The notes beneath the pieces were generated by a model. It made no database searches and had not been told where the DNA came from. It worked only from the letters and a program-made list of their open reading frames with translations. 50,707 nucleotides of DNA from an uncultured Klebsiella sp. (GTDB lineage Bacteria; Pseudomonadota; Gammaproteobacteria; Pseudomonadales; Pseudohongiellaceae): assembly GCA_964415735.1 (NCBI GenBank), contig CAYQBR010000001.1:1748-52454 (forward strand), read 5' to 3'. Numbering within the stretch: position 1 is the stretch's first letter; each line of letters begins with the position of its first letter. The position numbers and the translations under genes are program-made. Shown one piece after another: positions 25,093-40,928 of this stretch.

Positions 25093-26191
25093 ATGATCGA
25101 AACCAATCTGACCCATCTCAGGATCAAGGACTTCACCGCCCGCACAGACGTCCTTCGGGGGTATCTTTGACTACGATGAAAAGAAGGACCGCCTGCGCGA
25201 AGTAGAGCTCGAACTGGGCGAATCCAATGTCTGGGACAAACCCGAGGTGGCCCAGGCACTGGGTCGCGAGCGCTCGGAACTGGAGCTGGTGGTCACCACC
25301 ATCGACGCGCTCTACAGCGGACTCAACGATTGCACCGAACTGCTGACCCTGGCCGAGGAAGAGCAGGACGAAGCACTGTTCGAGGAGGTGAATGCCGAGC
25401 TGGAAACGCTGGGCGGCAAGCTTTCCGCGCTGGAATTCCGTCGCATGTTCTCCGGCAAGATGGACATCAACAACGCCTACCTCGACATTCAGGCGGGTTC
25501 CGGCGGTACCGAGGCGCAGGACTGGGCCGAGATGCTGCTGCGCATGTACCTGCGCTGGGGCGAGGCCAAGGGCTTCAATGTCGAAGTGGCCGAAGTCTCA
25601 GCCGGTGAGGTAGCGGGCATCAAGAGTGCCACGATTCACGTGTCCGGCGAGTATGCCTTCGGCTGGCTGCGCACCGAGACGGGCGTGCACCGCCTGGTGC
25701 GCAAGTCGCCCTTCGATTCCGGCAATCGCCGGCATACCTCGTTCTCGTCCGTGTTCGTGTCACCGGAAGTGGATGACGACATCGACATCGAGCTGAACAT
25801 GGGCGATGTGCGCGTGGACACCTACCGCGCCAGTGGCGCCGGCGGTCAGCACATCAACAAGACGGACTCCGCCGTGCGTCTGACTCACGAGCCGTCGGGC
25901 ATTGTCGTGCAGTGCCAGAACCAGCGCTCGCAGCACAAGAACAAGGACGAGGCCATCAAGATGTTGAAGGCACGTCTGTACGAGATGGAAGAGCTGAAGC
26001 GCCGTCAGGCCGCTCAGGCCATCGAGGAAGAGAAGGCGGACATCGGCTGGGGCAGTCAGATCCGCTCCTATGTGCTGGATCAGTCACGCATCAAGGACTT
26101 GCGCACGGGTGTGGAAGTCAGCAATACAGGCGCAGTGCTGGACGGCGACCTGGACAAGTTCATCGAAGCTAGTTTGAAAATGGGGCTATGA
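25093..26191 (+). CDS. prfB: peptide chain release factor 2, made by +1 programmed frameshift: join(25093..25167,25169..26191)
   Basis: Frame 0 gives [25 protein letters not shown] then TGA at 25168-25170. The +1 frame continues DYDEKKDRL... with SPF (RKSPFDS) and GGQ (SGAGGQH) motifs. Confidence 0.95.
25157..25171 (+). promoter_or_regulatory. prfB autoregulatory +1 frameshift site
   Basis: GGGGG TAT CTT TGA C: an internal SD-like G-run, slippery CTT, and an in-frame TGA followed by C. Matches the canonical E. coli site AGG GGG TAT CTT TGA C. Confidence 0.92.
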
Positions 26192-30043: not shown

Positions 30044-30195
30044 GCTGGCTCGGTGTATTCGCAGGGGCTTCTGGGCGACGAGGCACCTGCATGGTGCCTG
30101 GCCGGAACGGGGCGCAAGGATACCGACAGTTCCGTTTCAAGTACAGCCTGATTCCCTTATACTCCGGGCACTTTCCCCGCAGCGCGACTCCCTCG

Positions 30196-32544
30196 ATGCC
30201 TCTCAGCGACGCCATGAAACGCCTTGCCCGCAGCCTTCTCAAGGGGCGTCGCCTGCCCGTGGCGCTCGGGCTCGTGCTCACGCTGCTCGTGGCCTCCCTG
30301 CAGGTGCTGCCGCCAAGCGGCATCGGCTCCCTGATCGATCGTCTCGACAATCTCCTCTACGACCAGCGCTACAACCTGATGTCGAAACCGTCCGTGAATC
30401 CCGAGCACAAGATCGTGGTGGTGGACATCGATGAGCGCAGTCTGCAGGCCGAGGGGCAGTGGCCCTGGGATCGCTTCAAGCTCGGGCAGCTGGTGGAACG
30501 ACTGGCCGAGTATGGTGTGCTGGTCACCGGCTTCGACGTGACTTTTCCCGAGCCGCAGCGCAATACCGTGCGCGACATCGTTGCCCGCAGCGACGGCCTG
30601 ACACTGGAATCAGACTTCGTCGAACGACTGCGCACACTGGAGCAGGAACTGGATGCCGACCGCTATTTCGCGCAGGCCATTGCCAATCCCCTCATGTCCG
30701 TGGTGCTCGCAGTGTCTTTCAATCCTGTGCAGTCCGTGGAATACGGGGCGCTGCCAACACCGATCGTGGGGCTCGATGCTGCCATTGCGGAGCGCGTGAC
30801 GCTGCAGGAAATGGCCGGCTACACCGCCAACATCGCCGTGCTGCAGGAAGCTGCCGCGGGGGCCGGCATCATGAATCAGCTGCCGGATGTCGATGGCATC
30901 ATCCGCCGCGTGCCTCTTGTCGTGCGCTATCGCGATCAGTTGTATCCCACCCTGGCGCTGGAAATGGCGCGGCTGTATTTCTTCGAGCAGGATTTCGAAC
31001 TGGTGACCTATCCCCTGGGGGACGTGCATCAGGTGGAAGGCATCCGCATCGGTCGCAATGCAGGACAGTACGAGCTGGCCACGGATGCAAGAGCGCAGGT
31101 GCTGGTGCCCTATGTCGGTCCGTCCGTGCTAAGCGGCAACGGTCAATATGAATACGTCTCCGCCACCGATGTGCTCAATGGTGTCGTGGACCCGGCCGTG
31201 CTCGAGAATGCCCTGGTGCTGGTGGGCACCACGGCCACGGGCATGTTCGATCTGCGCTCGACGCCACTGGAAGCGGTCTACCCCGGAGTGGAAGTGCACG
31301 CGAACATTCTCAACGGCATCCTCAATTCCTTCATCGTGCAGGAAGTCGCGGGCAACGCAGAAGGCGCTGAAAACGACATCAATGCCACGCTGGCCTCGCC
31401 CTTTCCGTACAAACCTGTGTGGGAGGAGGGCGCGATTCTCGTGATCCTGCTGGTGCTCGGTGCAGTGCTCAGCGCGGTGCTCCCGCTGCTCGGTCCGACG
31501 CTGCTTGCGGTGGCGGCACTGGTCTTGATCGGCGCGGCCGTGTGGAGCAATTTCGCGCTGTGGTCGCTCTACCGCATGGACCTGTCGCTGACCCTGATCC
31601 TGCTGCTGATCCTGACGCTGGTGGTGATCAACACGGCGTATGGCTATCTGAGCGAGCGCCTCACGCGCAAGACCATCAAGGGCATGTTCGATCAATATGT
31701 GCCACCTGCCCACATTGACGCGATGCTGCAGAATCCAGAGGCTTACAGCTTCTCCGGCGAGAGCCGGGAAATGACGGTGCTGTTCGCGGACATCCGGGAT
31801 TTCACCAGTGTCTCGGAAGCGCTGACCGCCACCGAACTCAAGCAATTGTTGAACGAGTTTTTCACGCCGGTCACCAGCATCATCTTCGAGCACAACGGCA
31901 CCGTCGACAAATACGTCGGCGACATGATCATGGCTTTCTGGGGCGCGCCCCTGGAGGACCTCGCGCATCGCAGCAATGCAGTGCATGCCGCGCTGCGGAT
32001 TCTCGATGAAGTCGAGCGACTGCGGCAGGAGTTTCCGCGCAAGGGCTTTCCCCCGATCAATATCGGCATTGGCGTGAACACCGGCATGATGAACGTGGGC
32101 GACATGGGATCGGTCTATCGTCGCGCCTATACCGTGCTTGGAGACGCCGTGAACCTGGGCTCGCGACTCGAAGGTCTGACGAAGTTCTACGGCGTGAAAC
32201 TGTTGATCGGCGAAGAGACCCATCACACGCTGGAGGGCATCGTGTGTCGCCTGATCGACAAGGTGAAGGTCAAGGGCAAGGACCATGCCGTGCGCACTTA
32301 CGAACCGCTGTGCACGACGGCCGATGCGAGCCCGCAATTGCTGGCGGAAGTGGCGCAGTATCACGCGGCGCTCGAGCAGTATTTCGCGCAGCAATGGGAC
32401 GACGCACAGCAGCGTTTCGAGTCGTTGCACGCGGCTGCACCGCACGTGCATCTCTACGAGATCTATCTGGAAAGAATCGCCAATCTGCGCACGCAGAGTC
32501 TGCCTGCCGACTGGGATGGATCCTTCCAGCATCTGAGCAAATGA
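30196..32544 (+). CDS. CHASE2 sensor domain-containing class III adenylate/guanylate cyclase
   Basis: N-terminal TM helix, periplasmic CHASE2-like region (IVVVDIDERSL...WPWDR), three TM helices, then the cyclase domain (VLFADIRDFTSVSE, GDMIMAFWGAP, GVNTGMMNVGDMGS, VLGDAVNLGSRLEG). Start 30196 or 30214. Confidence 0.88.
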   Translation: MPLSDAMKRLARSLLKGRRLPVALGLVLTLLVASLQVLPPSGIGSLIDRLDNLLYDQRYNLMSKPSVNPEHKIVVVDIDERSLQAEGQWPWDRFKLGQLVERLAEYGVLVTGFDVTFPEPQRNTVRDIVARSDGLTLESDFVERLRTLEQELDADRYFAQAIANPLMSVVLAVSFNPVQSVEYGALPTPIVGLDAAIAERVTLQEMAGYTANIAVLQEAAAGAGIMNQLPDVDGIIRRVPLVVRYRDQLYPTLALEMARLYFFEQDFELVTYPLGDVHQVEGIRIGRNAGQYELATDARAQVLVPYVGPSVLSGNGQYEYVSATDVLNGVVDPAVLENALVLVGTTATGMFDLRSTPLEAVYPGVEVHANILNGILNSFIVQEVAGNAEGAENDINATLASPFPYKPVWEEGAILVILLVLGAVLSAVLPLLGPTLLAVAALVLIGAAVWSNFALWSLYRMDLSLTLILLLILTLVVINTAYGYLSERLTRKTIKGMFDQYVPPAHIDAMLQNPEAYSFSGESREMTVLFADIRDFTSVSEALTATELKQLLNEFFTPVTSIIFEHNGTVDKYVGDMIMAFWGAPLEDLAHRSNAVHAALRILDEVERLRQEFPRKGFPPINIGIGVNTGMMNVGDMGSVYRRAYTVLGDAVNLGSRLEGLTKFYGVKLLIGEETHHTLEGIVCRLIDKVKVKGKDHAVRTYEPLCTTADASPQLLAEVAQYHAALEQYFAQQWDDAQQRFESLHAAAPHVHLYEIYLERIANLRTQSLPADWDGSFQHLSK

Positions 32545-32625: not shown

Positions 32626-32653
32626 TTGACAGAACAATTCAAGTGCGTAAAAT
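32626..32653 (+). promoter_or_regulatory. candidate sigma70 promoter for tRNA-Val/tRNA-Asp
   Basis: Consensus TTGACA (32626-32631), 16-nt spacer, TAAAAT (32648-32653), GC-rich discriminator gcgcgtc. The tRNA starts at 32673. Confidence 0.55.
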
Positions 32654-32672: not shown

Positions 32673-32748
32673 GGGTGTTTAGCTCAGTTGGTAGAGCGTC
32701 GCCCTTACAAGGCGAATGTCGGGGGTTCAAATCCCTCAACACCCACCA
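32673..32748 (+). tRNA. tRNA-Val (anticodon UAC)
   Basis: Acceptor gggtgtt/aacaccc, anticodon stem tcgcc/ggcga, loop cTTACaa, T loop ttcaaat, encoded CCA. Confidence 0.95.
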
Positions 32749-32784: not shown

Positions 32785-32861
32785 GGACCGGTAGTTCAGC
32801 CGGTTAGAATGCCGGCCTGTCACGCCGGAGGTCGCGGGTTCGAGTCCCGTCCGGTCCGCCA
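32785..32861 (+). tRNA. tRNA-Asp (anticodon GUC)
   Basis: Acceptor ggaccgg/ccggtcc, anticodon stem ccggc/gccgg, loop ctGTCac, T loop ttcgagt, encoded CCA. Confidence 0.95.
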
Positions 32862-33025
32862 CTAACCCCTCTTCAAATCAGCAATTCCCCAGCCCGTTTC
32901 AACGTCATCGCTGCACTCGAATGCACGCGTTTTCTCGTGCCAATAAAAGCGCACTTGGCACTGTTGCCTGCGTCCACTTGCTCGCGCCGGATGCTTCCTT
33001 TACTCCACTTCCAGCGCTGGCTAAG

Positions 33026-35716
33026 ATGCCGGGACTTCGAGCGCAGAGGAGCAGCGGTGTGTCGCAAACAACAATTCAAGACAAGCGCGCAACGGATGCC
33101 ACGGTCGACACCTTTCTGGTGCAGGCGCATGGCATCGCCGCGTTTGTCATGCTGCTGATGGCCGTCACCTTCGGCATTCTTGTCTCGCTGCAATTCATTC
33201 TGCCGGATCTGTTCTCCGGTCTGCTGCCGAGCTGGGGTCGCATGCGCTATGCGCACACCCAGGGCATCATGCTGGGCTGGCTCGGCAATGCCTTCCTGGC
33301 CTTTCTCTATCATGCGGTTCCCATCCTGACGGGTGCGCGGGTCACCGGGCGCAGGCTCGGTCTGGTGTTGTTCGGTCTCTGGAATTTCGTGGTGATGCTG
33401 CCGGGCTGGGCGCTGGTGCTGGCCGGTGTCAGTCAGCCACTGGAGTGGGCGGAGTTCCCCCTGCTGGTCGATGTGTTCGTGGTGCTGGCCTTCGTGCTCG
33501 CCGCCGTGCAATTCCTGCCGCCTTTCTTCCGCAAGGGGCTCACCGACCTCTACGTCTCGGGCTGGTACATCATCGGGGCCCTGGTCTTCACGCTGCTCTC
33601 CTATCCCATGGGCAACATCGTGCCCGAGTTCGTGCCGGGCGCCGCGGGAGCCGCCTTCAGCGGTCTGTGGATTCACGATGCCGTCGGGTTGTTCGTCACT
33701 CCGCTCGCGCTCGCCATTCTCTATTTCGTGATTCCCGCCAGCACCGGTCGGCCTGTCTTCAGTCATCTGCTCTCGATGCTGGGCTTCTGGGGACTGTTCT
33801 TCCTTTACCCGCTGAACGGGACACATCACTACATCTTCTCCGTGATCCCGATGGAGGCGCAGATGACGGCGATCTATGCCTCGTTCCTGCTCGGGGTGAT
33901 CGTGCTCATCGTGGTCTCCAATCTCGTGCTCTCCCAGCGTGGCAGCGGCTGGATTCCGCAGGACATCGCGCTGCGCTTCGTCTCGATGTCGGTGATCTTC
34001 TACCTCGTGGTGAGCATTCAGGGCTCGCTGCAGGCCAACATGGCACTCAATGAGCTGACGCACTTCACGGACTGGGTGATCGGGCATTCCCATCTGGCCA
34101 TGCTGGGCTTCGCCACCTTCGCCGGCATCGGCGGCATCCTGCACGCCTGGCAGCGCATTCCCCAGGCGCGCTACAACGCCCGGGCACTGGAATGGGCCTA
34201 CTGGCTGCTGACGGTTGGCATCTGGCTCATGGTCATCGACCTGTCGCTGGCCGGTCTGGTGCAGGGCGGCGCCTGGCAGAGCGGCGCGCCCTGGCTGGAA
34301 TCCCTGCGTGTGTCGCAGCCCTACTGGGTGTTCCGCTCCCTGACTGCCATTCCCATCACTGCCGGCTTCATCGCCCTGTTCGCTGGTCTGATGACGGGCC
34401 CGCGTGGCGCCGGGGCCGATGCCGTGGCGCAGAACCGGCAGCGTGTGGCGGCGGCGCGTGTGGCGCCCGTGCTGATCGAGGGCAGTGCCGATGCGCCCGC
34501 GCGGGTGCTGGGCATGTCCTATGTCGTGGCCTCGGTGGCGGGCGTGCTGTTCTTCGTGTTCTCGGTGTCTCTGCTGGGCGAGATGCCCAGGCGCCTGCTG
34601 GCGGATCAGACGAATGTGATGGCCCCGGCCAGTCCACTGCCCCTGACGCCCTCCGAGCAGCGCGGCCGTGACATCTACGCCCGCGAAGGCTGTGGCTATT
34701 GCCATACCCAGCAAGTGCGCTATGTGCCGGCCGACATCCAGCGCTACGGAGCGCCGACCCTGGCCTGGGAAGGGCGCTTCGATTTCCCGCATCTGCTGGG
34801 CACCCGGCGCATCGGGCCGGATCTGGCACGCGCCGCGAACACCCGCACCGCCGAATGGCATCTCGCCCATTTGTATGCCCCGCGAGCCGTGGTGCCCGGC
34901 TCGGTGATGCCGGCCTACCCGCAGTTCTTCGCCGGGGACCCGACGCAGCCCACCCAGGAAGCGCGTGACCTGGTGGCCTATCTGGACACGCTAGGCCGCG
35001 CCCGCGAACTGGCCTGGCCGGACGGCGACACCGCCGCCCGTGCCGTGGCGGGCGACAGCGAATGGGCGCAGATGGCGTTCTCCTCTCCAGTGCTCAATGC
35101 GCATCCGGGCAGGACACAGCCGCGCGGCAATGCGCCGGCGCTGCCCGCCACCGGGGATCTGGCGCTGGGCAAGGCCCTGTGGCAGGCCAATTGCTCCGGC
35201 TGTCACGGGGCGAACGGTGATGGAGCTGGGCAGGCGTCCGGCTGGCTGGAGCCGCCGCCCGTGAATCTCACCGCGCGGGACTACACGGGACAGCGTCTGG
35301 CCGACATTTTGTGGAACGGGGTTCACGGCACTGCCATGCCGGGCTGGCGTGACCAGCCCCTGGAAAGTCTCGCTGCCCTGGTCGCCGTGGTGCGCGACTT
35401 CGGGCCGCAGGACGCCACTGCCGCGCCCGCGCCGCAATTGCAGGAAGGCGCCCGCGTCTATCAGCAGCACTGTGCCGAGTGTCATGGCGATGCGGGCACG
35501 GGCAATGGCTTCGCGGCGGATCAGCTGCCCATCATGCCGACGGACTTCACGGGCGAGCGCCCCACGCATGCCGAGAGCGAACGGGTGCTGCGCAATGGCG
35601 TGCCCGGAACCTCCATGGCACCGTGGACGGATCGCCTGAATGACGCCGAGATCGCGGCGGTCTCTCACTTCGTGCGTCAGTTCTACGCAGGCGAGACAAC
35701 AGGAGGGGCGCGATGA
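33026..35716 (+). CDS. fused cbb3-type cytochrome c oxidase: CcoN (subunit I) + CcoO (monoheme) + CcoP-like (diheme) in one polypeptide
   Basis: CcoN ligand motifs RYAHTQG, LWIHDAVG, LYPLNGTHHY and HFTDWVIGHSHLAMLG. Then a TM helix plus the FixO-like region GRDIYAREGCGYCH...GPDLAR...WHLAHLYAPRAVVPGSVMP. Then CSGCH...GTAMPGW and CAECH...GTSMAPW. The start is uncertain: track ORF begins 32921, and ATG 33026 is chosen from the N-terminal length of known CcoN. Confidence 0.85.
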   Translation: MPGLRAQRSSGVSQTTIQDKRATDATVDTFLVQAHGIAAFVMLLMAVTFGILVSLQFILPDLFSGLLPSWGRMRYAHTQGIMLGWLGNAFLAFLYHAVPILTGARVTGRRLGLVLFGLWNFVVMLPGWALVLAGVSQPLEWAEFPLLVDVFVVLAFVLAAVQFLPPFFRKGLTDLYVSGWYIIGALVFTLLSYPMGNIVPEFVPGAAGAAFSGLWIHDAVGLFVTPLALAILYFVIPASTGRPVFSHLLSMLGFWGLFFLYPLNGTHHYIFSVIPMEAQMTAIYASFLLGVIVLIVVSNLVLSQRGSGWIPQDIALRFVSMSVIFYLVVSIQGSLQANMALNELTHFTDWVIGHSHLAMLGFATFAGIGGILHAWQRIPQARYNARALEWAYWLLTVGIWLMVIDLSLAGLVQGGAWQSGAPWLESLRVSQPYWVFRSLTAIPITAGFIALFAGLMTGPRGAGADAVAQNRQRVAAARVAPVLIEGSADAPARVLGMSYVVASVAGVLFFVFSVSLLGEMPRRLLADQTNVMAPASPLPLTPSEQRGRDIYAREGCGYCHTQQVRYVPADIQRYGAPTLAWEGRFDFPHLLGTRRIGPDLARAANTRTAEWHLAHLYAPRAVVPGSVMPAYPQFFAGDPTQPTQEARDLVAYLDTLGRARELAWPDGDTAARAVAGDSEWAQMAFSSPVLNAHPGRTQPRGNAPALPATGDLALGKALWQANCSGCHGANGDGAGQASGWLEPPPVNLTARDYTGQRLADILWNGVHGTAMPGWRDQPLESLAALVAVVRDFGPQDATAAPAPQLQEGARVYQQHCAECHGDAGTGNGFAADQLPIMPTDFTGERPTHAESERVLRNGVPGTSMAPWTDRLNDAEIAAVSHFVRQFYAGETTGGAR

Positions 35717-35901
35717 TTTCCGATGTGATCGTGGGACTCAGTGTGTTGTTCGCCGCCGGCTGGCTGGCGGCGGCCTGGCTGCGGCCGGCGCTGCGGCGGC
35801 GCATCGAGCAGCCCAAGTTCGTGTTTGCGCAGCAGATCCAGCGGTTTGACGAAGACCAGCAGGCGTCCAATTCCAGGGAGACTCCCCATGAACCCCGATA
35901 A
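35713..35901 (+). CDS. hypothetical 62-aa single-pass membrane protein (occupies a CcoQ-like position)
   Basis: ATGA overlap with the oxidase stop, one N-terminal hydrophobic helix (VIVGLSVLFAAGWLAAAWL), G/C-rich third codon positions. No recognisable family. Confidence 0.45.
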   Translation: MISDVIVGLSVLFAAGWLAAAWLRPALRRRIEQPKFVFAQQIQRFDEDQQASNSRETPHEPR

Positions 35902-36883
35902 GCAGAGTGGCAGCATCCTTTTCACCGTGCTGGCCGGCGGCGCGGCCGGTCTGGGCATCATTGCGGCGGCGCTGTGGCTGTATCGGCCCATGCCCGTGAG
36001 TCCCGGCGTGCCGCTGGAAGCCACGGCCGAATACGGCGAGCGCCTGATTCGCCACACGCCGGAAGAGATGGGCCCTGCCAACCCGGACCCTGCCATGCGC
36101 TACACCGGTTCGCATCTGGACTGCGCGTCCTGCCATCTGGACAGCGGCCGCAAGCCCGGCACGCTCTCGCTGCTGCAGACCAGCTCGCGCTATCCGCGCT
36201 TCTCCGGCCGGGACGGGGGGGAAGGGGACTTGCGTGATCGCATCCAGGGCTGCATGACCCGCAGCATGAATGGCCGGGAGCTGCCCCGCGATGGCGTGCA
36301 GATGGTGTCCATGGAGCTGTACATCAACAGCCTCTGGGCGCAGACCCAGGCCTCCAGCGAGAGCCGTGTGCAGCCGGACGAGCCGCCGGCCTTCCGCGAG
36401 CCGGATCGGGCGGCCGACATCGCGGCGGGGCAGGTGGTGTTCGAGCAGCGTTGCGCCGTGTGCCACGGCATCGACGGACTCGGCCTGCAGGCCACGAATG
36501 ACATCAAGGAAGGCTATCTGTTCCCGCCGCTGTGGGGGCCGGACAGCTACAACAACGGCGCCGGCATGAACCGGGTGCTGACGGCGGCCATGTTCATCAA
36601 GGCGCGCATGCCACTGGGGCAGCCGGATCTGACGGATGACCAGGCCTTCGATGTGTCGGCCTACATCAATTCGAAGGAGCGGCCGCAGATGGCCAATCTG
36701 GAAGAGGATTACCCGGATCGCACCACCAAGCCGGTGGACAGCCCGTACCCGCCGTACGCCGACCCATTCCCGGTGGAGCAGCACAAGTTCGGGCCGTTCG
36801 GGCCGATCCGCGAGTACTACTCCGCCCAGACCGCGGCACGCAACGCCGCGCAGAACGCGGCGGGCACTGCCGGGGGCCGCTAG
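35888..36883 (+). CDS. membrane-anchored diheme c-type cytochrome, TsdA (thiosulfate dehydrogenase)-like
   Basis: Internal ATG 35888 of track ORF 35741..36883. N-terminal helix ILFTVLAGGAAGLGIIAAALWLY, two CxxCH (CASCH, CAVCH). RIQGCMTRSMNG and PPLWGPDSYNNGAGMNR resemble TsdA/SoxA-family signatures (from memory). Confidence 0.7.
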   Translation: MNPDKQSGSILFTVLAGGAAGLGIIAAALWLYRPMPVSPGVPLEATAEYGERLIRHTPEEMGPANPDPAMRYTGSHLDCASCHLDSGRKPGTLSLLQTSSRYPRFSGRDGGEGDLRDRIQGCMTRSMNGRELPRDGVQMVSMELYINSLWAQTQASSESRVQPDEPPAFREPDRAADIAAGQVVFEQRCAVCHGIDGLGLQATNDIKEGYLFPPLWGPDSYNNGAGMNRVLTAAMFIKARMPLGQPDLTDDQAFDVSAYINSKERPQMANLEEDYPDRTTKPVDSPYPPYADPFPVEQHKFGPFGPIREYYSAQTAARNAAQNAAGTAGGR

Positions 36884-37573
36884 TCAGCCGGCCACCAGCA
36901 TCGTGTAGCCGTGCTCCTGAGCGCGCGTCGTCGCCATGACGCCTGCGGGCACCATGCGCGCGTTGACGCCGATGGAGGCCGCGAGTTCGCGGGCGATCGC
37001 ATCGACATCGCCGCCGGTGGCCGCCGCGAGGAAGGTGGAGAGATTGCGCGTGGCACGACTGCACACGGCATACTGCACGCCCCGCGCGGCATTGGAAGCC
37101 AGCGTGTGGCCCCGGCTGGGCAGGTCGACACGATCGGACATCGTGATCGGGCTGCGCGGGAAGTTCTCACCGGTCTTCGGGTCGTGATACTGCGTGTAGT
37201 CGGCCAGCACCTTCCCGTACTTCTCCCACATCGCGTCACTGTAGGCCAGCGGCGCTGCTGCGGCGCGGAAACAGATGATCATCGCGTAATCCGACTCCGC
37301 TCCCTTGTAGACATCGGTGTGGGTGGCCAGGATGTTGGCCGCGTAGTTCATGGCGTTCACACCGCCCAGGCCGGTGTAGCAATCGATGAGCGTGCGGTGT
37401 GTCCCCGGCATGTCCATCCAGGCGTCTTCGTCGTGGATGCGCGGTTCGAAGCGCTGACGCGCGGTCTGCGCGACGGCCTTGGTGGCGGCGGCTGCGGAGG
37501 TCAGTGCAGCGACGAGGCCGAGACGGCCGAGAAAGGATCGACGCCCGGACGGGGGCAGGGATTGGTCTGACAT
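36884..37573 (-). CDS. Tat-exported periplasmic protein of unknown function (possibly DsrE/COG1416-like fold)
   Basis: ATG 37573 after AGGAG. Twin-arginine signal SGRRSFLGRLGLVAALTSAAAATKAVA-Q. The mature ~185 aa carry conserved-looking Cys (YAVCSRAT) and a C-terminal MVPAGVMATTRAQEHGYTMLVAG. The fold assignment is a weak guess. Confidence 0.7.
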   Translation of the reverse strand: MSDQSLPPSGRRSFLGRLGLVAALTSAAAATKAVAQTARQRFEPRIHDEDAWMDMPGTHRTLIDCYTGLGGVNAMNYAANILATHTDVYKGAESDYAMIICFRAAAAPLAYSDAMWEKYGKVLADYTQYHDPKTGENFPRSPITMSDRVDLPSRGHTLASNAARGVQYAVCSRATRNLSTFLAAATGGDVDAIARELAASIGVNARMVPAGVMATTRAQEHGYTMLVAG

Positions 37574-37665
37574 GGGAGCTCCTGAAGGCTGTGGCGCTCG
37601 CTGTCGGGGGCGCCCGTGAAGTAACAAGTGCTGGCTATTCAACTACAGGGCAGGCGGAAAATCGA

Positions 37666-38577
37666 GTGCGTCAGATCAAGCTTTCAGCCACGTCGGCCCC
37701 CTTGCAAGCCGTGCAGGACGCCGTGCTTGACGCTCACGGCATAGGCTTGAGCGTGCTGCGTCTGGACCTGCTGCACCCCTTCATCAGCGGCAACAAGTGG
37801 TTCAAGCTGCGGCCCGTGCTGGAACGGGCCCAGGCCCAGGGACAGCGTACGCTGATCAGTTTCGGCGGGGCCTGGTCCAATCATCTGCTCGCGCTCGCCG
37901 CGGCCGGGCAGCAGGCCGGTTTCACCACGATCGGGCTGGTGCGCGGGGAGGTCCTGCGGCCCCTCAATCCCGTGCTGGCGGCCGCCGAGGCCTTCGGCAT
38001 GCAATTGCTGCCGGTGTCCCGCACCGCATACCGCGAGCGCCACACTGACGCCTTCCTGCAGGCACTGCGTGAGCGCTGGCCGCAGGCGCACCTCATTCCC
38101 GAAGGCGGCGCCACGCTGGACGGCGTGCTGGGGTGCCAGGAAATCGCCCGTGCGCTGCGCTGGACAGGGTCTGCCACCCGTCCGCGCCGGGTGGCGCTGG
38201 CGACGGCCACCGGCACCACGCTTGCAGGCCTGGTGTCGGCCCTGGACGAGTCCGTTCGCGTGGAGGCCACCCTCGTGCTCAAGGGCGAGGATCGCCTCAG
38301 CGCCCAGGTGCAGCACTGGCTGGAGCAGCTGCCGGCTGGTCCGCGTGCCGACTGGCAGATCGTGCAAGGCTGGCACGCCGGCGGCTATGCGCGCAGTCAT
38401 CCCGGGCTCGATACCTTCATCGCCGGCTTCACGGCGAGGACGGGCATCCCGCTGGAACCCGTCTATACCGGCAAGATGATGTGGAGTGTCTACGGGCGCA
38501 TTGTCAGGGGAGAAATCCCGCCCGGCAGTGAGATCATTGCCATCCACACCGGTGGCATTCCGCCTTCTGCCACATAA
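37666..38577 (+). CDS. PLP-dependent 1-aminocyclopropane-1-carboxylate deaminase / D-cysteine desulfhydrase family protein
   Basis: LLHPFISGNKWFKL (PLP lysine motif), GGAWSNH, IPEGG, HTGG. GTG 37666 is chosen because the upstream part of track ORF 37399 overlaps the opposite-strand Tat gene. Start uncertain. Confidence 0.8.
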   Translation: MRQIKLSATSAPLQAVQDAVLDAHGIGLSVLRLDLLHPFISGNKWFKLRPVLERAQAQGQRTLISFGGAWSNHLLALAAAGQQAGFTTIGLVRGEVLRPLNPVLAAAEAFGMQLLPVSRTAYRERHTDAFLQALRERWPQAHLIPEGGATLDGVLGCQEIARALRWTGSATRPRRVALATATGTTLAGLVSALDESVRVEATLVLKGEDRLSAQVQHWLEQLPAGPRADWQIVQGWHAGGYARSHPGLDTFIAGFTARTGIPLEPVYTGKMMWSVYGRIVRGEIPPGSEIIAIHTGGIPPSAT

Positions 38578-38645: not shown

Positions 38646-40928
38646 ATGCCTGTTCCGCTGTTGCAGCGTCTGCTCCGCCTCTGTCTGCCGTGTCTGGTGG
38701 CCGTCCTCGGTCTCTGGCAGTCGGGCATTGCCGTGGCGCAGGACCACGTCGCGCAGTCGCCATTGTGGCGCATCCTCGCCACTCCCGTGGTCGACATGCC
38801 CGCCGTGCCGGCCCATGCCAGCCATGCCGTGCCCATCGCCCTGCATGCCGAGGTGCTGGAGTCCCTGCAGACGGGCAGTGCCGTGCCGGTGCCCGTGCAG
38901 CAGCAGGCAGGCGAAGTGCGTCACACCCCGTTGCTGATCCTGGCGCAGACCCGCCAGCTCAACGGCGACCGCAGCCTGCATGGCGAACTCGCGGGATACG
39001 GTCGACAGACCCCCTTCGTGCTGACGGCGAGTGCAGTGGATGTCTTCGCCTATGCCGAGATCGGTGCGGAGGTCTGGCAGTTGCATGTCAGCAGGAACGA
39101 AGCGGTGGGGGATTACAGCGGCTGGCTCTACCAGTCGGCCGGCCTGCCCGAAGGCGCCCTGCGACAGGACTACGTGATTCCGGATCTCGCGCATCCGGTC
39201 CCCGTGGCGCTGCCAGCACTGCCGCCTAGCACGCTGCCGCTGCGCCTTGGCAATGGGAGTGCGCAGGGCCAGGCCCAGAGCGCACGCAACGCCGGCATCA
39301 ATGCCCGCAATCTGCAGATCACCCAGTCTGTCGGCAACGGCAGTGTCCTGGCCGGGAGCACGGCCCAGATCGAAGCCAGTTTCCGCAACACCAGCAGCGA
39401 GCGACACGAGGCGCTCTCCGTCAATTTCTATTTCGCGCTGGAGAACAGCACGCTGGTCAGTGCCACCGAAGGCTGTCGCCAGGGGACGGTGGGCGGGCAA
39501 CGCGTGCTCAATTGTCCGCTGGGAGACTTCGCCCCAGGGGAAAGCAAGACGCTGCGCTACACCATCGCGACGACGGCGGCCTCCAAGCCCCGCATCATCT
39601 CCACCGCGCTGGTGGGCGAGCTGCGCCATGACGCGGTGCTGAACGTGGTCGAGGATGTGCTGCGCGACAGCGACAACAATGGCGTCAGCGACTTCAATGA
39701 GGCGCTGCTCGGTGTCGGCCAGGCCGGTATCGCCCACGCCGGCGCCTTGACCGAACCCTCGGTGATCGACGTGATGGCGCTCTATACCCCCGGCGCCGAC
39801 ACGCTGTATGGGGGCGCGGCGCAGACGCGCATCAACCAGCTCATCGCCATGGCCAACCAGATCTATGCCGACAGCGGCGTGGCCATCACCCTGCGCCCGG
39901 TGTACATGGGCCCGGTGGCCTACAGTGAGTCGGTGGACATGGACACCGCGCTGAGTGCCCTGACCAGTCGCAAGGATCCAGCCTTCGCTGCCGTGGACAG
40001 CCTGCGCGAGCGATATGGCGCCGATCTGGTGATGCTGTTCCGGCCGCAGGGAACGGAGCTGGATCGCTGCGGTCTCGCGAACCTGGGCGGCTTTCGCACG
40101 CAGGGTGACTTCACCTCTTCCGACGAGCGGCAGTTCGCGTTCTCGACCATCGCCATCGACTGCCCCGTGAGTTCCGTCGTGGCCCACGAGCTGGGGCACA
40201 ACATGGGCCTGACCCACTCCCACCGGGAGGACGGTCACGGCGGCACCTTCGACTTCGCCACCGGTTACGGCGTGGAGTCGCTCTTCACCACGGTCATGGC
40301 CTTTCCCGCCGCCTTCAACACCAGTGTGCGAATTGCGCGCTTCTCGAGCCCTGCGCGTGACTGTCTCGGTGTGCCCTGCGGGGTGGCGGCTGGTGGCACG
40401 CAGCCGCCGGCCGATGCCGTGCGCGCCCTGGATGTGGTGCGACACCAGATCGCTCGTTACTACGCCCAGCGTGTGCCGCTGCTGCCCGACAAGCCGCTCG
40501 GCACCCTGAGCGGCACTGCCACCAATGCCCGCATCGCCCTGGCGGCGAGCGTCAACAAGGGGCTCGATCATGTCTCGGTGGTGACGCCTGCCGACAGCGT
40601 CGACATCAATCTGAGCCTGAGCGTGGATTCCCGTCACAGCGGCCAGGCCGGCTCGATCTACGTGCTGGCCACCCTGGACGGCGAGCAGTTCGTGATGCTG
40701 GACGAGCAGGGCACAGCGCATGCCTGGGACGGCAGCTTCGCCGGTCTGCGCGCCTTCCGCAGCGTGTCTGCGCTGCGCGCCGTGGAATATGTGCAGATCG
40801 CCAATGCGGCCCGCCTCGGCGCCGATTTCGTCGGCCGGCGGCTGCAGATCTACATCGCCTACAGCGTGCCCGGCCAGGGGGAAGTGGTCTACACCGTCGA
40901 GCCGCTGGCGCTGGACATCAGCCGCTGA
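38646..40928 (+). CDS. secreted zinc metalloprotease, metzincin/reprolysin-like (M12B-like) with large N- and C-terminal extensions
   Basis: Signal peptide ...GIAVAQD, HELGHNMGLTHSH (HExxHxxGxxH) at about aa 515. An upstream beta-rich repeat-like domain (NCPLGDFAPGESKTLRYTIATT). 760 aa. Confidence 0.85.
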   Translation: MPVPLLQRLLRLCLPCLVAVLGLWQSGIAVAQDHVAQSPLWRILATPVVDMPAVPAHASHAVPIALHAEVLESLQTGSAVPVPVQQQAGEVRHTPLLILAQTRQLNGDRSLHGELAGYGRQTPFVLTASAVDVFAYAEIGAEVWQLHVSRNEAVGDYSGWLYQSAGLPEGALRQDYVIPDLAHPVPVALPALPPSTLPLRLGNGSAQGQAQSARNAGINARNLQITQSVGNGSVLAGSTAQIEASFRNTSSERHEALSVNFYFALENSTLVSATEGCRQGTVGGQRVLNCPLGDFAPGESKTLRYTIATTAASKPRIISTALVGELRHDAVLNVVEDVLRDSDNNGVSDFNEALLGVGQAGIAHAGALTEPSVIDVMALYTPGADTLYGGAAQTRINQLIAMANQIYADSGVAITLRPVYMGPVAYSESVDMDTALSALTSRKDPAFAAVDSLRERYGADLVMLFRPQGTELDRCGLANLGGFRTQGDFTSSDERQFAFSTIAIDCPVSSVVAHELGHNMGLTHSHREDGHGGTFDFATGYGVESLFTTVMAFPAAFNTSVRIARFSSPARDCLGVPCGVAAGGTQPPADAVRALDVVRHQIARYYAQRVPLLPDKPLGTLSGTATNARIALAASVNKGLDHVSVVTPADSVDINLSLSVDSRHSGQAGSIYVLATLDGEQFVMLDEQGTAHAWDGSFAGLRAFRSVSALRAVEYVQIANAARLGADFVGRRLQIYIAYSVPGQGEVVYTVEPLALDISR

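Follow-up and report, generated by a model that had tools for sequence, protein, structure and literature searches.

Close coupling of thiosulfate oxidation to a membrane terminal oxidase is known from Acidianus ambivalens, where DoxDA converts thiosulfate to tetrathionate and DoxBCE serves as the oxidase; DoxDA is not a cytochrome c, and its electrons pass through the quinone pool to an archaeal quinol oxidase. The other described systems that come closest to the locus reported here are the CcoNOQP oxidases (Pseudomonas stutzeri, 3mk7; Rhodobacter capsulatus, 6xkw), TsdA with TsdB or TsdBA (Allochromatium vinosum, 4wq7; Marichromatium purpuratum, 5lo9), the SoxAX/SoxYZ and SorAB systems, and the DsrE/TusD proteins. 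We analyzed a 50,707-nucleotide stretch of DNA (the window) from contig CAYQBR010000001.1 of an uncultured bacterium placed by GTDB in the Pseudohongiellaceae. It carries four adjacent genes that encode a fused cbb3-type oxidase, a small membrane protein, a membrane-anchored TsdA-type diheme cytochrome c, and a DsrE-like protein exported by the twin-arginine translocation (Tat) route. The concept known from A. ambivalens would be realized here by unrelated proteins and with entry of electrons at the level of cytochrome c. We put the probability that the four genes form a respiratory module acting as a thiosulfate-to-oxygen chain at somewhat below 60%; the purpose of the gene set is probably the direct burning of thiosulfate with oxygen. 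The genes and their parts are as follows (window coordinates).

33026..35716, plus strand: fused cbb3-type oxidase of 896 amino acids (aa), with CcoN-like, CcoO-like, and CcoP-like diheme domains
33125..34348, plus strand: CcoN-like catalytic core (oxidase residues ~34-441), mapped onto 3mk7_A
34523..34936, plus strand: CcoO-like segment, a mono-heme c domain (CGYCH at 556) preceded by the membrane anchor (residues 500-518)
35093..35713, plus strand: C-terminal periplasmic diheme cytochrome c domain of the oxidase (CSGCH at 723, CAECH at 816)
35713..35901, plus strand: small single-pass membrane protein of 62 aa, CcoQ-like in size, topology, and gene position
35888..36883, plus strand: membrane-anchored TsdA-type diheme cytochrome c of 331 aa
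36251..36253, plus strand: codon for Cys122 of the TsdA-like cytochrome, the predicted sixth ligand of the catalytic heme
36884..37573, minus strand: Tat-exported DsrE-like protein of 229 aa

An earlier note on this window had placed the oxidase, the small open reading frame (ORF), the cytochrome, the convergent Tat gene, and two tRNA genes at these positions, and ORF, Pfam, and ARAGORN checks confirmed its feature coordinates. The first three genes, which the note had taken as one unit, are translationally coupled. The TGA stop codon of the oxidase gene (35714-35716) overlaps the ATG of the small ORF at 35713 (ATGA), with an AGGAGG sequence upstream of that ATG, and the ATG of the TsdA-like gene (35888) shares 14 nt with the 3′ end of the small ORF. 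Across the family, the median overlap of the small-ORF start with the oxidase stop was 4 nt. No terminator-like site was found within 33.4 to 36.9 kb of the window. The Tat gene converges on this unit, and the two stop codons abut (TAG at 36881-36883 for the TsdA-like gene and TCA at 36884-36886 for the Tat gene).

The unit is conserved far beyond the window. Relatives of the oxidase occurred in at least 354 GTDB species genomes (one genome per species), and 80 loci were taken for comparison. A TsdA-like gene lay directly downstream on the same strand in 69 of the 72 loci with at least 1.4 kb of sequence after the oxidase, and the loci with the oxidase-TsdA pair belonged to Pseudohongiellaceae, Woeseiaceae, other Gammaproteobacteria, and Acidobacteriota. 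Because it recurs in so many informative loci of other species, the arrangement is far beyond chance. Gene-neighborhood conservation had been proposed in the earlier note as a check, and the pairing was recovered when searched from both sides: in a reverse search starting from TsdA, every contig covering the upstream region had the fused oxidase and the small ORF there. Downstream, these contigs carried either a 230- to 234-aa gene without a Pfam match or a gene of ~195 to 199 aa. In one locus (L085) the oxidase gene was not listed, and a gap of matching size was found in its place. One TsdA cluster had 362 members; the contigs read for that cluster were Tara Oceans assemblies. For 64 loci, the pairwise identities of the oxidases and of the TsdA-like proteins were correlated (r = 0.83; Mantel, 0/999), with values for oxidase and TsdA, respectively, of 0.58 and 0.54 between phyla, not far below the 0.63 and 0.61 within phyla. 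These identities fit joint inheritance and transfer of the pair.

The Tat gene, which the earlier note had also linked to the unit, proved to be a conserved fourth member, present next to the module in 58 of the 65 loci with adequate flanks. Among the 64 of 80 loci that have a DsrE-like gene, it was convergent right after TsdA in 32 and immediately upstream of the oxidase, in the same direction, in 22; one gene lay between in 9, and the gene was elsewhere in 1. In some genomes (e.g., L029), its stop codon overlaps the start of the oxidase gene. Adjacency kept up in two different arrangements speaks for a link in function. The DsrE-like gene was missing from seven loci with full flanks, three of which were also without TsdA.

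From the ATG at 33026, the oxidase is 896 aa long, which matches the length of its homologues; more than 1190 of these were found, and the best 120 all had this set of domains and lengths of 865 to 899 aa. In Pfam, the ORF that ends at 35716 matched the families COX1 (E = 2.7e-56) and FixO (E = 9.5e-36; residues 563 to 672 in the numbering of the 931-aa ORF) and contained two cytochrome c domains. Its N-terminal 450 residues aligned with P. stutzeri CcoN (3mk7_A; phmmer E = 4e-37), and the segment that follows aligned with P. stutzeri CcoO (E = 3e-27). Hydropathy and a CXXCH scan gave the CcoN helices, one more helix (residues 500 to 518), and then CXXCH motifs at 556, 723, and 816; since that helix precedes all three motifs, all of the c-hemes are placed in the periplasm. 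The best PDB matches of the last ~210 residues were 6h5l_B (4.6e-14) and CcoP (9g83_v; 6e-8). The mono-heme CcoO and diheme CcoP modules are both present, fused to the N module rather than forming separate subunits. The fusion of N, O, and diheme parts described in the earlier note was borne out, and what it called the P part is a diheme domain of the generic CcoP/c4-like kind.

Residues were checked by mapping 13 diverse family members onto 3mk7_A. The six histidines of heme b, heme b3, and CuB (equivalents of P. stutzeri H60, H207, H257, H258, H345, and H347) were kept in 13/13 members. Tyr261 in the sequence LYPLNGTHH, which corresponds to P. stutzeri Y251 on helix VII and is predicted to form the cross-link to a CuB histidine, was invariant. 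Glu140 of the Ca site was present and conserved, as were four further channel residues, which we take to belong to the proton path. In its metal ligands, cross-link Tyr, Ca-site Glu, mono-heme O module, and diheme P-like module, the protein resembles the CcoNOQP enzymes; unlike them, it holds N, O, and diheme modules in one 896-aa polypeptide of low identity to CcoN. It is a C-family (cbb3-type) heme-copper oxidase, predicted to reduce O2 with proton pumping.

In CcoNOQP, as here, the O module is followed by the gene for a small single-pass protein. The small ORF of the window was found by tblastn in 59/80 loci, and independent contigs and annotations call it as a gene of 56 to 62 aa. In the family alignment, an N-terminal transmembrane helix is followed by a conserved R..IE.PK[FY].F motif. 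The protein agrees with CcoQ in size, in its single transmembrane helix, and in its position after the O module but matched no Pfam family, FixQ (PF05545) included. For the single-helix subunits CcoQ and CcoM, see PMC4742706. Also unlike the CcoNOQP operons, the position of ccoP is held here by the TsdA gene.

The 331-aa product of that gene (homologues, 305 to 338 aa) matched A. vinosum TsdA (4wq7; phmmer E = 3.9e-34) and M. purpuratum TsdBA (5lo9; phmmer E = 1.1e-38). As defined by Grabarczyk et al. 2015 (PMC4423706), the active site of A. vinosum TsdA comprises, in precursor numbering, the heme-ligating Cys123 together with Arg109, Arg119, and Ser127; the Met ligand of heme 2 is strictly conserved in TsdA (PMC5146829). 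We aligned 71 sequences, namely, the window protein, 69 neighbors of related oxidases, and A. vinosum TsdA. The heme 1 motif C79xxC82H83 with its Cys122 ligand, the pocket residues Arg108, Arg118, and Ser126 (equivalent to Arg109, Arg119, and Ser127), and the heme 2 motif C189xxC192H193 with Met241 were each conserved in 71/71 sequences. The Cys122 site aligned as RIQGCMTRSMNG versus RIGDCFERSLNG, with Cys122 corresponding to A. vinosum Cys96 in the mature protein (Cys123 in the precursor). Foldseek of an AlphaFold2 (AF2) model returned TsdA proteins as all of the top 8 matches; the model is of low confidence (predicted local distance difference test [pLDDT] score, 63), and the corroboration is accordingly weak. 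The protein shares with TsdA the diheme fold, the His/Cys heme, the Arg/Arg/Ser pocket, and the His/Met heme 2. In contrast to described TsdA proteins, it is anchored rather than soluble, carries a C-terminal extension of ~45 aa, has Arg at the position of Lys208, and is encoded next to a terminal oxidase instead of TsdB. The membrane anchor lies at residues ~9 to 31, and a long N-terminal hydrophobic segment was found in 68/69 family members. By these sequence features the cytochrome is a true homologue of TsdA: its substrate pocket is intact, and so is the Cys-ligated heme, the lack of which would, by the earlier note, have spoken against the module. Thiosulfate/tetrathionate activity is predicted for it.

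The C-terminal extension (window 36695-36820, residues ~270 to 310) is itself strongly conserved and reads KPVDSPYPPYAD.FP.EQH..GPF.PIREFY. A. vinosum TsdA ends before this stretch, which is a candidate element for docking.

For the Tat gene, the minus-strand ATG at 37573 gives MSDQSLPPSGRRSFLG. The twin-arginine pair (residues 11 and 12) was invariant in 44/44 homologues, as was the single Cys171, which lies in an AVCxxAT motif at a strand-helix junction. A PDB profile search with this protein gave nothing meaningful, and the fold search alone pointed to a DsrE-like protein: the best Foldseek matches of its AF2 model (pLDDT, 88) were 1l1s, 3pnx, and 2pd2, with probabilities of 0.99 to 1.0, E values of 6e-3 to 1e-2, and target template-modeling scores of 0.52 to 0.74. 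Entry 3pnx carries the annotation putative DsrE sulfurtransferase, and we take 1l1s and 2pd2 to belong to the DsrE/YchN fold class. Several source annotations name relatives “intracellular sulfur oxidation DsrE/DsrF family protein.” The window protein matched no Pfam family; the Pfam DsrE model (PF02635) matched only 3/44 relatives, at a best E value of 0.026. At 50% identity and E values of ≤1e-10, the family comprises at least 929 clusters, and among the matches listed (the strongest 150), no bridge through weak matches led from it to canonical DsrE. The putative likeness to DsrE/TusD proteins lies in the predicted fold, matched by Foldseek, and in the single conserved Cys at the strand-helix junction; the differences are export by the Tat route (known members are cytoplasmic), an insertion of ~40 aa, and the missing Pfam DsrE match. 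In some genomes the DsrE-like Tat protein occurs twice, the copies standing in tandem or separated by a few kilobases (L009:13778-15595, L066:5031-7140, L043:21579-22280, and L057:17621-18355).

Three loci without TsdA (L074, L077, and L080) contain the most divergent oxidases (49 to 51% identity). Directly upstream of the oxidase and co-directional with it, all three encode a Tat-signal molybdoenzyme of the sulfite oxidase family (PF00174 and PF03404) together with a pair of small cytochromes c; next come the oxidase and then the small ORF. These sulfite-oxidase-type clusters span L074:7835-12697, L077:7808-12670, and L080:7942-12733. The gene order in this sister clade supports a role of the scaffold as a dedicated oxidase for periplasmic sulfur-oxyanion dehydrogenases, which it would serve in both settings. 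The SoxAX/SoxYZ and SorAB systems are comparable in that periplasmic sulfur-oxyanion dehydrogenases feed c-type cytochromes, as the SorA-like enzyme and cytochromes c before the oxidase in the three loci may do, and SoxA shares its Cys-ligated heme family with TsdA (PMC4423706). In contrast with those systems, the window has no Sox genes, its candidate carrier is DsrE-like and not SoxYZ, and the dedicated fused oxidase is absent from the described systems.

Other genes of sulfur-related families adjoin the module outside the window. In 9 loci (e.g., L059:13453-13803, plus strand), the gene that follows TsdA directly codes for a periplasmic single-domain rhodanese that has a signal or lipoprotein leader. 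Separately, a secreted protein of no Pfam family adjoins the module in 34/80 loci, sometimes between TsdA and the DsrE-like gene. It is ~200 aa long (L040:8835-9437, minus strand) or tandem duplicated to ~377 aa (L008:13906-15042, minus strand) and carries the motif QRDNSLAGMG.PWMMR.GT..AHLMIPI; neither this protein nor the rhodanese is encoded in the window. At L085:10695-14945, the module is followed by genes for a sulfur-transport protein of the YeeE/YedE type (PF04143), a protein with a metallo-beta-lactamase fold, and one protein that combines PF04273 with Pyr_redox_2, which adds to the sulfur-metabolism context.

The tetrathionate/thiosulfate couple has a potential of +198 mV (PMC5146829). 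In the mechanism that we propose, the TsdA-type cytochrome would be held by its N-terminal helix on the periplasmic face of the membrane and would convert two thiosulfate molecules to tetrathionate at its His/Cys-ligated heme. The two electrons would leave through the His/Met heme of TsdA to the periplasmic c-hemes of the neighboring oxidase, the entire route running from heme 1 to heme 2, the diheme domain, the CcoO heme, heme b, b3-CuB, and O2, which the single-polypeptide oxidase would reduce at heme b3-CuB. We infer, as a reasonable reading only, that TsdA could pass electrons directly to the built-in diheme domain without soluble carriers, as the earlier note had suggested. The 62-aa membrane protein, at the position of ccoQ in ccoNOQP, probably stabilizes the assembly, and the DsrE-like protein, which has one invariant Cys, probably handles a periplasmic sulfur species (for example, a bound persulfide or thiosulfonate, or tetrathionate). 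A couple at +198 mV is too positive to reduce the quinone pool, and its electrons would enter at cytochrome c, so that only the terminal oxidase would conserve energy. On this reasoning, a high-affinity oxidase reserved for the purpose is physiologically sensible.

Several points weigh against a thiosulfate-to-oxygen chain. Two substitutions set the oxidase apart from CcoNOQP: Gln332 (window 34019-34021) replaces P. stutzeri Glu323 in 13/13 members, and Gly253 (window 33782-33784) replaces P. stutzeri His243 throughout the family. Glu323 is presumably the hydrogen-bond partner of the heme b3 histidine, and Buschmann and coworkers reportedly described the role of this hydrogen-bonded residue in 2010; a literature search on the roles of Glu323 and His243 yielded no relevant paper. 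These changes may alter the heme b3 potential or proton delivery, and the catalytic properties of the enzyme may differ from those of the cbb3 enzymes studied. The curated cbb3 models scored under their cutoffs (TIGR00780 ccoN, 163 versus 583 bits; TIGR00781 ccoO, 116 versus 201 bits; TIGR00782 ccoP, 42 versus 180 bits), and scores so far below the equivalog cutoffs indicate a divergent clade that has no curated model of its own. TsdB is the known electron acceptor of TsdA, but the idea that the built-in diheme domain is a fused TsdB found no support, as the domain gave no TsdB signal and resembles a generic CcoP/c4-type cytochrome. In the TsdA-like protein, the residue before the heme 2 Met is Arg in 65 and Lys in 6 of the 71 sequences, with Arg in the window and Lys in A. 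vinosum; TsdA enzymes are bidirectional, and the heme 2 environment at that position influences the direction of the reaction (PMC5146829). With Arg in place of the A. vinosum Lys, the direction is therefore not readable from the sequence. The DsrE-like assignment is a fold match of marginal E value (6e-3), with no Pfam match over threshold. No FNR/Anr box, that is, no low-oxygen box, was found upstream of the oxidase (32862-33025). Finally, almost all of the relatives are metagenome-assembled genomes.

A bolder form of the thiosulfate-to-oxygen chain would make TsdA an integral anchored subunit of a single-complex “thiosulfate oxidase” that requires no quinone, bc1, or soluble carrier, with the periplasmic DsrE-like protein as a hitherto unrecognized extracytoplasmic sulfur carrier and with the scaffold re-used with a sulfite dehydrogenase in the sister clade. 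We hold this form tentatively, as less likely than not.

The rival that survives best keeps the flow of electrons to the oxidase and changes the chemistry. The TsdA-like protein would play the part of SoxAX and oxidatively link thiosulfate, or some other sulfur anion, to the invariant Cys of the DsrE-like protein, which would stand in for SoxYZ. In the SoxA family, enzymes conjugate thiosulfate oxidatively with a second thiolate by way of a Cys S-thiosulfonate intermediate (PMC4423706), and a partner with one invariant Cys is indeed encoded beside the module in two arrangements, to the point of stop/start overlap with the oxidase in genomes such as L029. However, Ser127 is invariant in TsdA and absent from SoxA (PMC4423706), and its equivalent was conserved in 71/71 sequences. 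Moreover, the conserved neighbors include neither a SoxB-like hydrolase nor any other enzyme for recycling, and the DsrE-like gene is missing from the seven full-flank loci described above (three of them also without TsdA). We consider this carrier-based scheme unlikely.

The position of the TsdA gene allows another explanation, in which the protein carries out no sulfur chemistry and is merely an electron-carrying substitute for CcoP that feeds the oxidase from bc1 or soluble cytochromes. An anchored diheme cytochrome encoded after a small Q-like gene does occupy the position of ccoP in ccoNOQP, and an interplay of CcoQ with CcoP is documented in a reference cited by PMC4742706, as far as that citation conveys it. 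Yet the Cys ligand and the Arg/Arg/Ser pocket, invariant in 71 sequences from several phyla, would be hard to explain without catalysis; the oxidase already has a CcoP-like domain; and neighbors of sulfur families recur. Furthermore, His/Cys hemes typically have very low potentials and make poor simple carriers. A mere CcoP substitute thus seems quite improbable.

We also weighed the possibility that the TsdA-like protein is mainly a tetrathionate reductase, as in Campylobacter jejuni, and that its linkage to the oxidase reflects shared regulation or electron input. The bidirectionality of TsdA, with direction set by the heme 2 environment, and the family's Arg in place of the Lys of the oxidizing A. 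vinosum enzyme speak for this. In contrast, translational coupling and co-inheritance with an O2 reductase across phyla suit donation of electrons to the oxidase better, and the parallel sulfite-oxidase arrangement involves an oxidizing enzyme, so that we give a reductase very little weight. Least probable by our estimate is that the fused enzyme is not primarily an O2 reductase at all and instead is a nitric oxide reductase or another variant of the lineage of C-family oxidases and nitric oxide reductases: its clade does score far under the cbb3 equivalog cutoffs and has two invariant substitutions near the active site or proton path, but its active-site Tyr is invariant, as are its three CuB histidines, and no characterized nitric oxide reductase is known to have this Tyr.

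The comparative evidence supports the core idea of the earlier note and carries it further, and the interpretation in that note is supported in part; its elements outside the module, at the positions below, fall away.

37666-38577: pyridoxal phosphate (PLP) enzyme gene, divergent from the Tat gene, likely GTG start at 37666
32673-32748: tRNA-Val (ARAGORN)
32785-32861: tRNA-Asp (ARAGORN)

The PLP enzyme had been put forward as a module member and source of sulfide. It was rejected, as synteny of its gene is limited to L001 and L002, the two nearest relatives, and it scored 83.5 bits against a cutoff of 289.4 for the D-cysteine desulfhydrase subfamily model TIGR01275 and 34 to 48 against cutoffs of 429 to 610 for the D-cysteine desulfhydrase equivalogs; a link to sulfide release thus lacks a basis. 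Its start is probably the GTG at 37666 and not, as given in the note, 37399. Acquisition of the module on a tRNA-associated island was likewise rejected: the 32-nt 3′ end of tRNA-Asp had no second copy at ≤3 mismatches, the G+C content (0.57 to 0.69) showed no clear break at the tRNA junction, the tRNAs adjoin the module only in L001 to L003, and the genes on the flanks are housekeeping genes. A near-consensus sigma-70-like promoter (window 32626-32653; TTGACA, a 16-nt spacer, and TAAAAT) precedes tRNA-Val and is the sole strong promoter-like site of the scan. No terminator-like site was found on the plus strand between tRNA-Asp and the oxidase start, so that transcription from the tRNA promoter may run on into the oxidase operon.

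The rest of the window is housekeeping in character (prfB, lysS, aspS, dapA, NAD kinase, pepN, and others). For the genes of a CHASE2 cyclase, a metzincin protease, and NAD kinase, as for the PLP gene, synteny is confined to the nearest relatives. The first of these, a fusion of a CHASE2 sensor with an adenylate/guanylate cyclase (window 30091-32544), lies just upstream of the tRNAs and has a match of high identity only in L001 and a weak partial one in L002. The metzincin is a 760-aa secreted protein with reprolysin-like domains (window 38646-40928); with a score of 198 against a cutoff of 645 bits for the Mep72 model, it is by sequence related to the Mep72 family and not a member of it. The release factor 2 gene (PCRF and RF-1 domains; window 25247-26191) is without its N-terminal part in frame, and a CTTTGAC motif lies ~80 nt upstream of that frame (window 25165-25171), a layout consistent with the classic programmed +1 frameshift of prfB.

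The components of the module are of known kinds: a C-family oxidase, TsdA, and a DsrE-like fold. New, and apparently undescribed, is their combination, i.e., a triple-fusion oxidase, an anchored and extended TsdA in the ccoP position, an exported DsrE-like protein, and re-pairing of the oxidase with a sulfite-oxidase-family enzyme. The earlier note had known of no described system of this composition, and in the literature that we searched, an incomplete collection, we found no published description of the module. Heterotrophic oxidation of thiosulfate to tetrathionate is widespread in oceans, sediments, and soils, and its electron route to O2 and its energy yield are poorly defined. If our interpretation is correct, the TsdA-wired oxidase would provide a concrete and testable route as well as a genomic marker for thiosulfate oxidation; it would be a rare example in which a substrate dehydrogenase belongs to the gene set of a heme-copper oxidase and perhaps to the complex itself; and it would give a function to two unannotated families, the exported DsrE-like proteins and the small membrane proteins. 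Should TsdA and the oxidase indeed form one complex, they would represent a class of heme-copper oxidases that are dedicated to particular substrates and widespread among heterotrophs of the sea and the soil.

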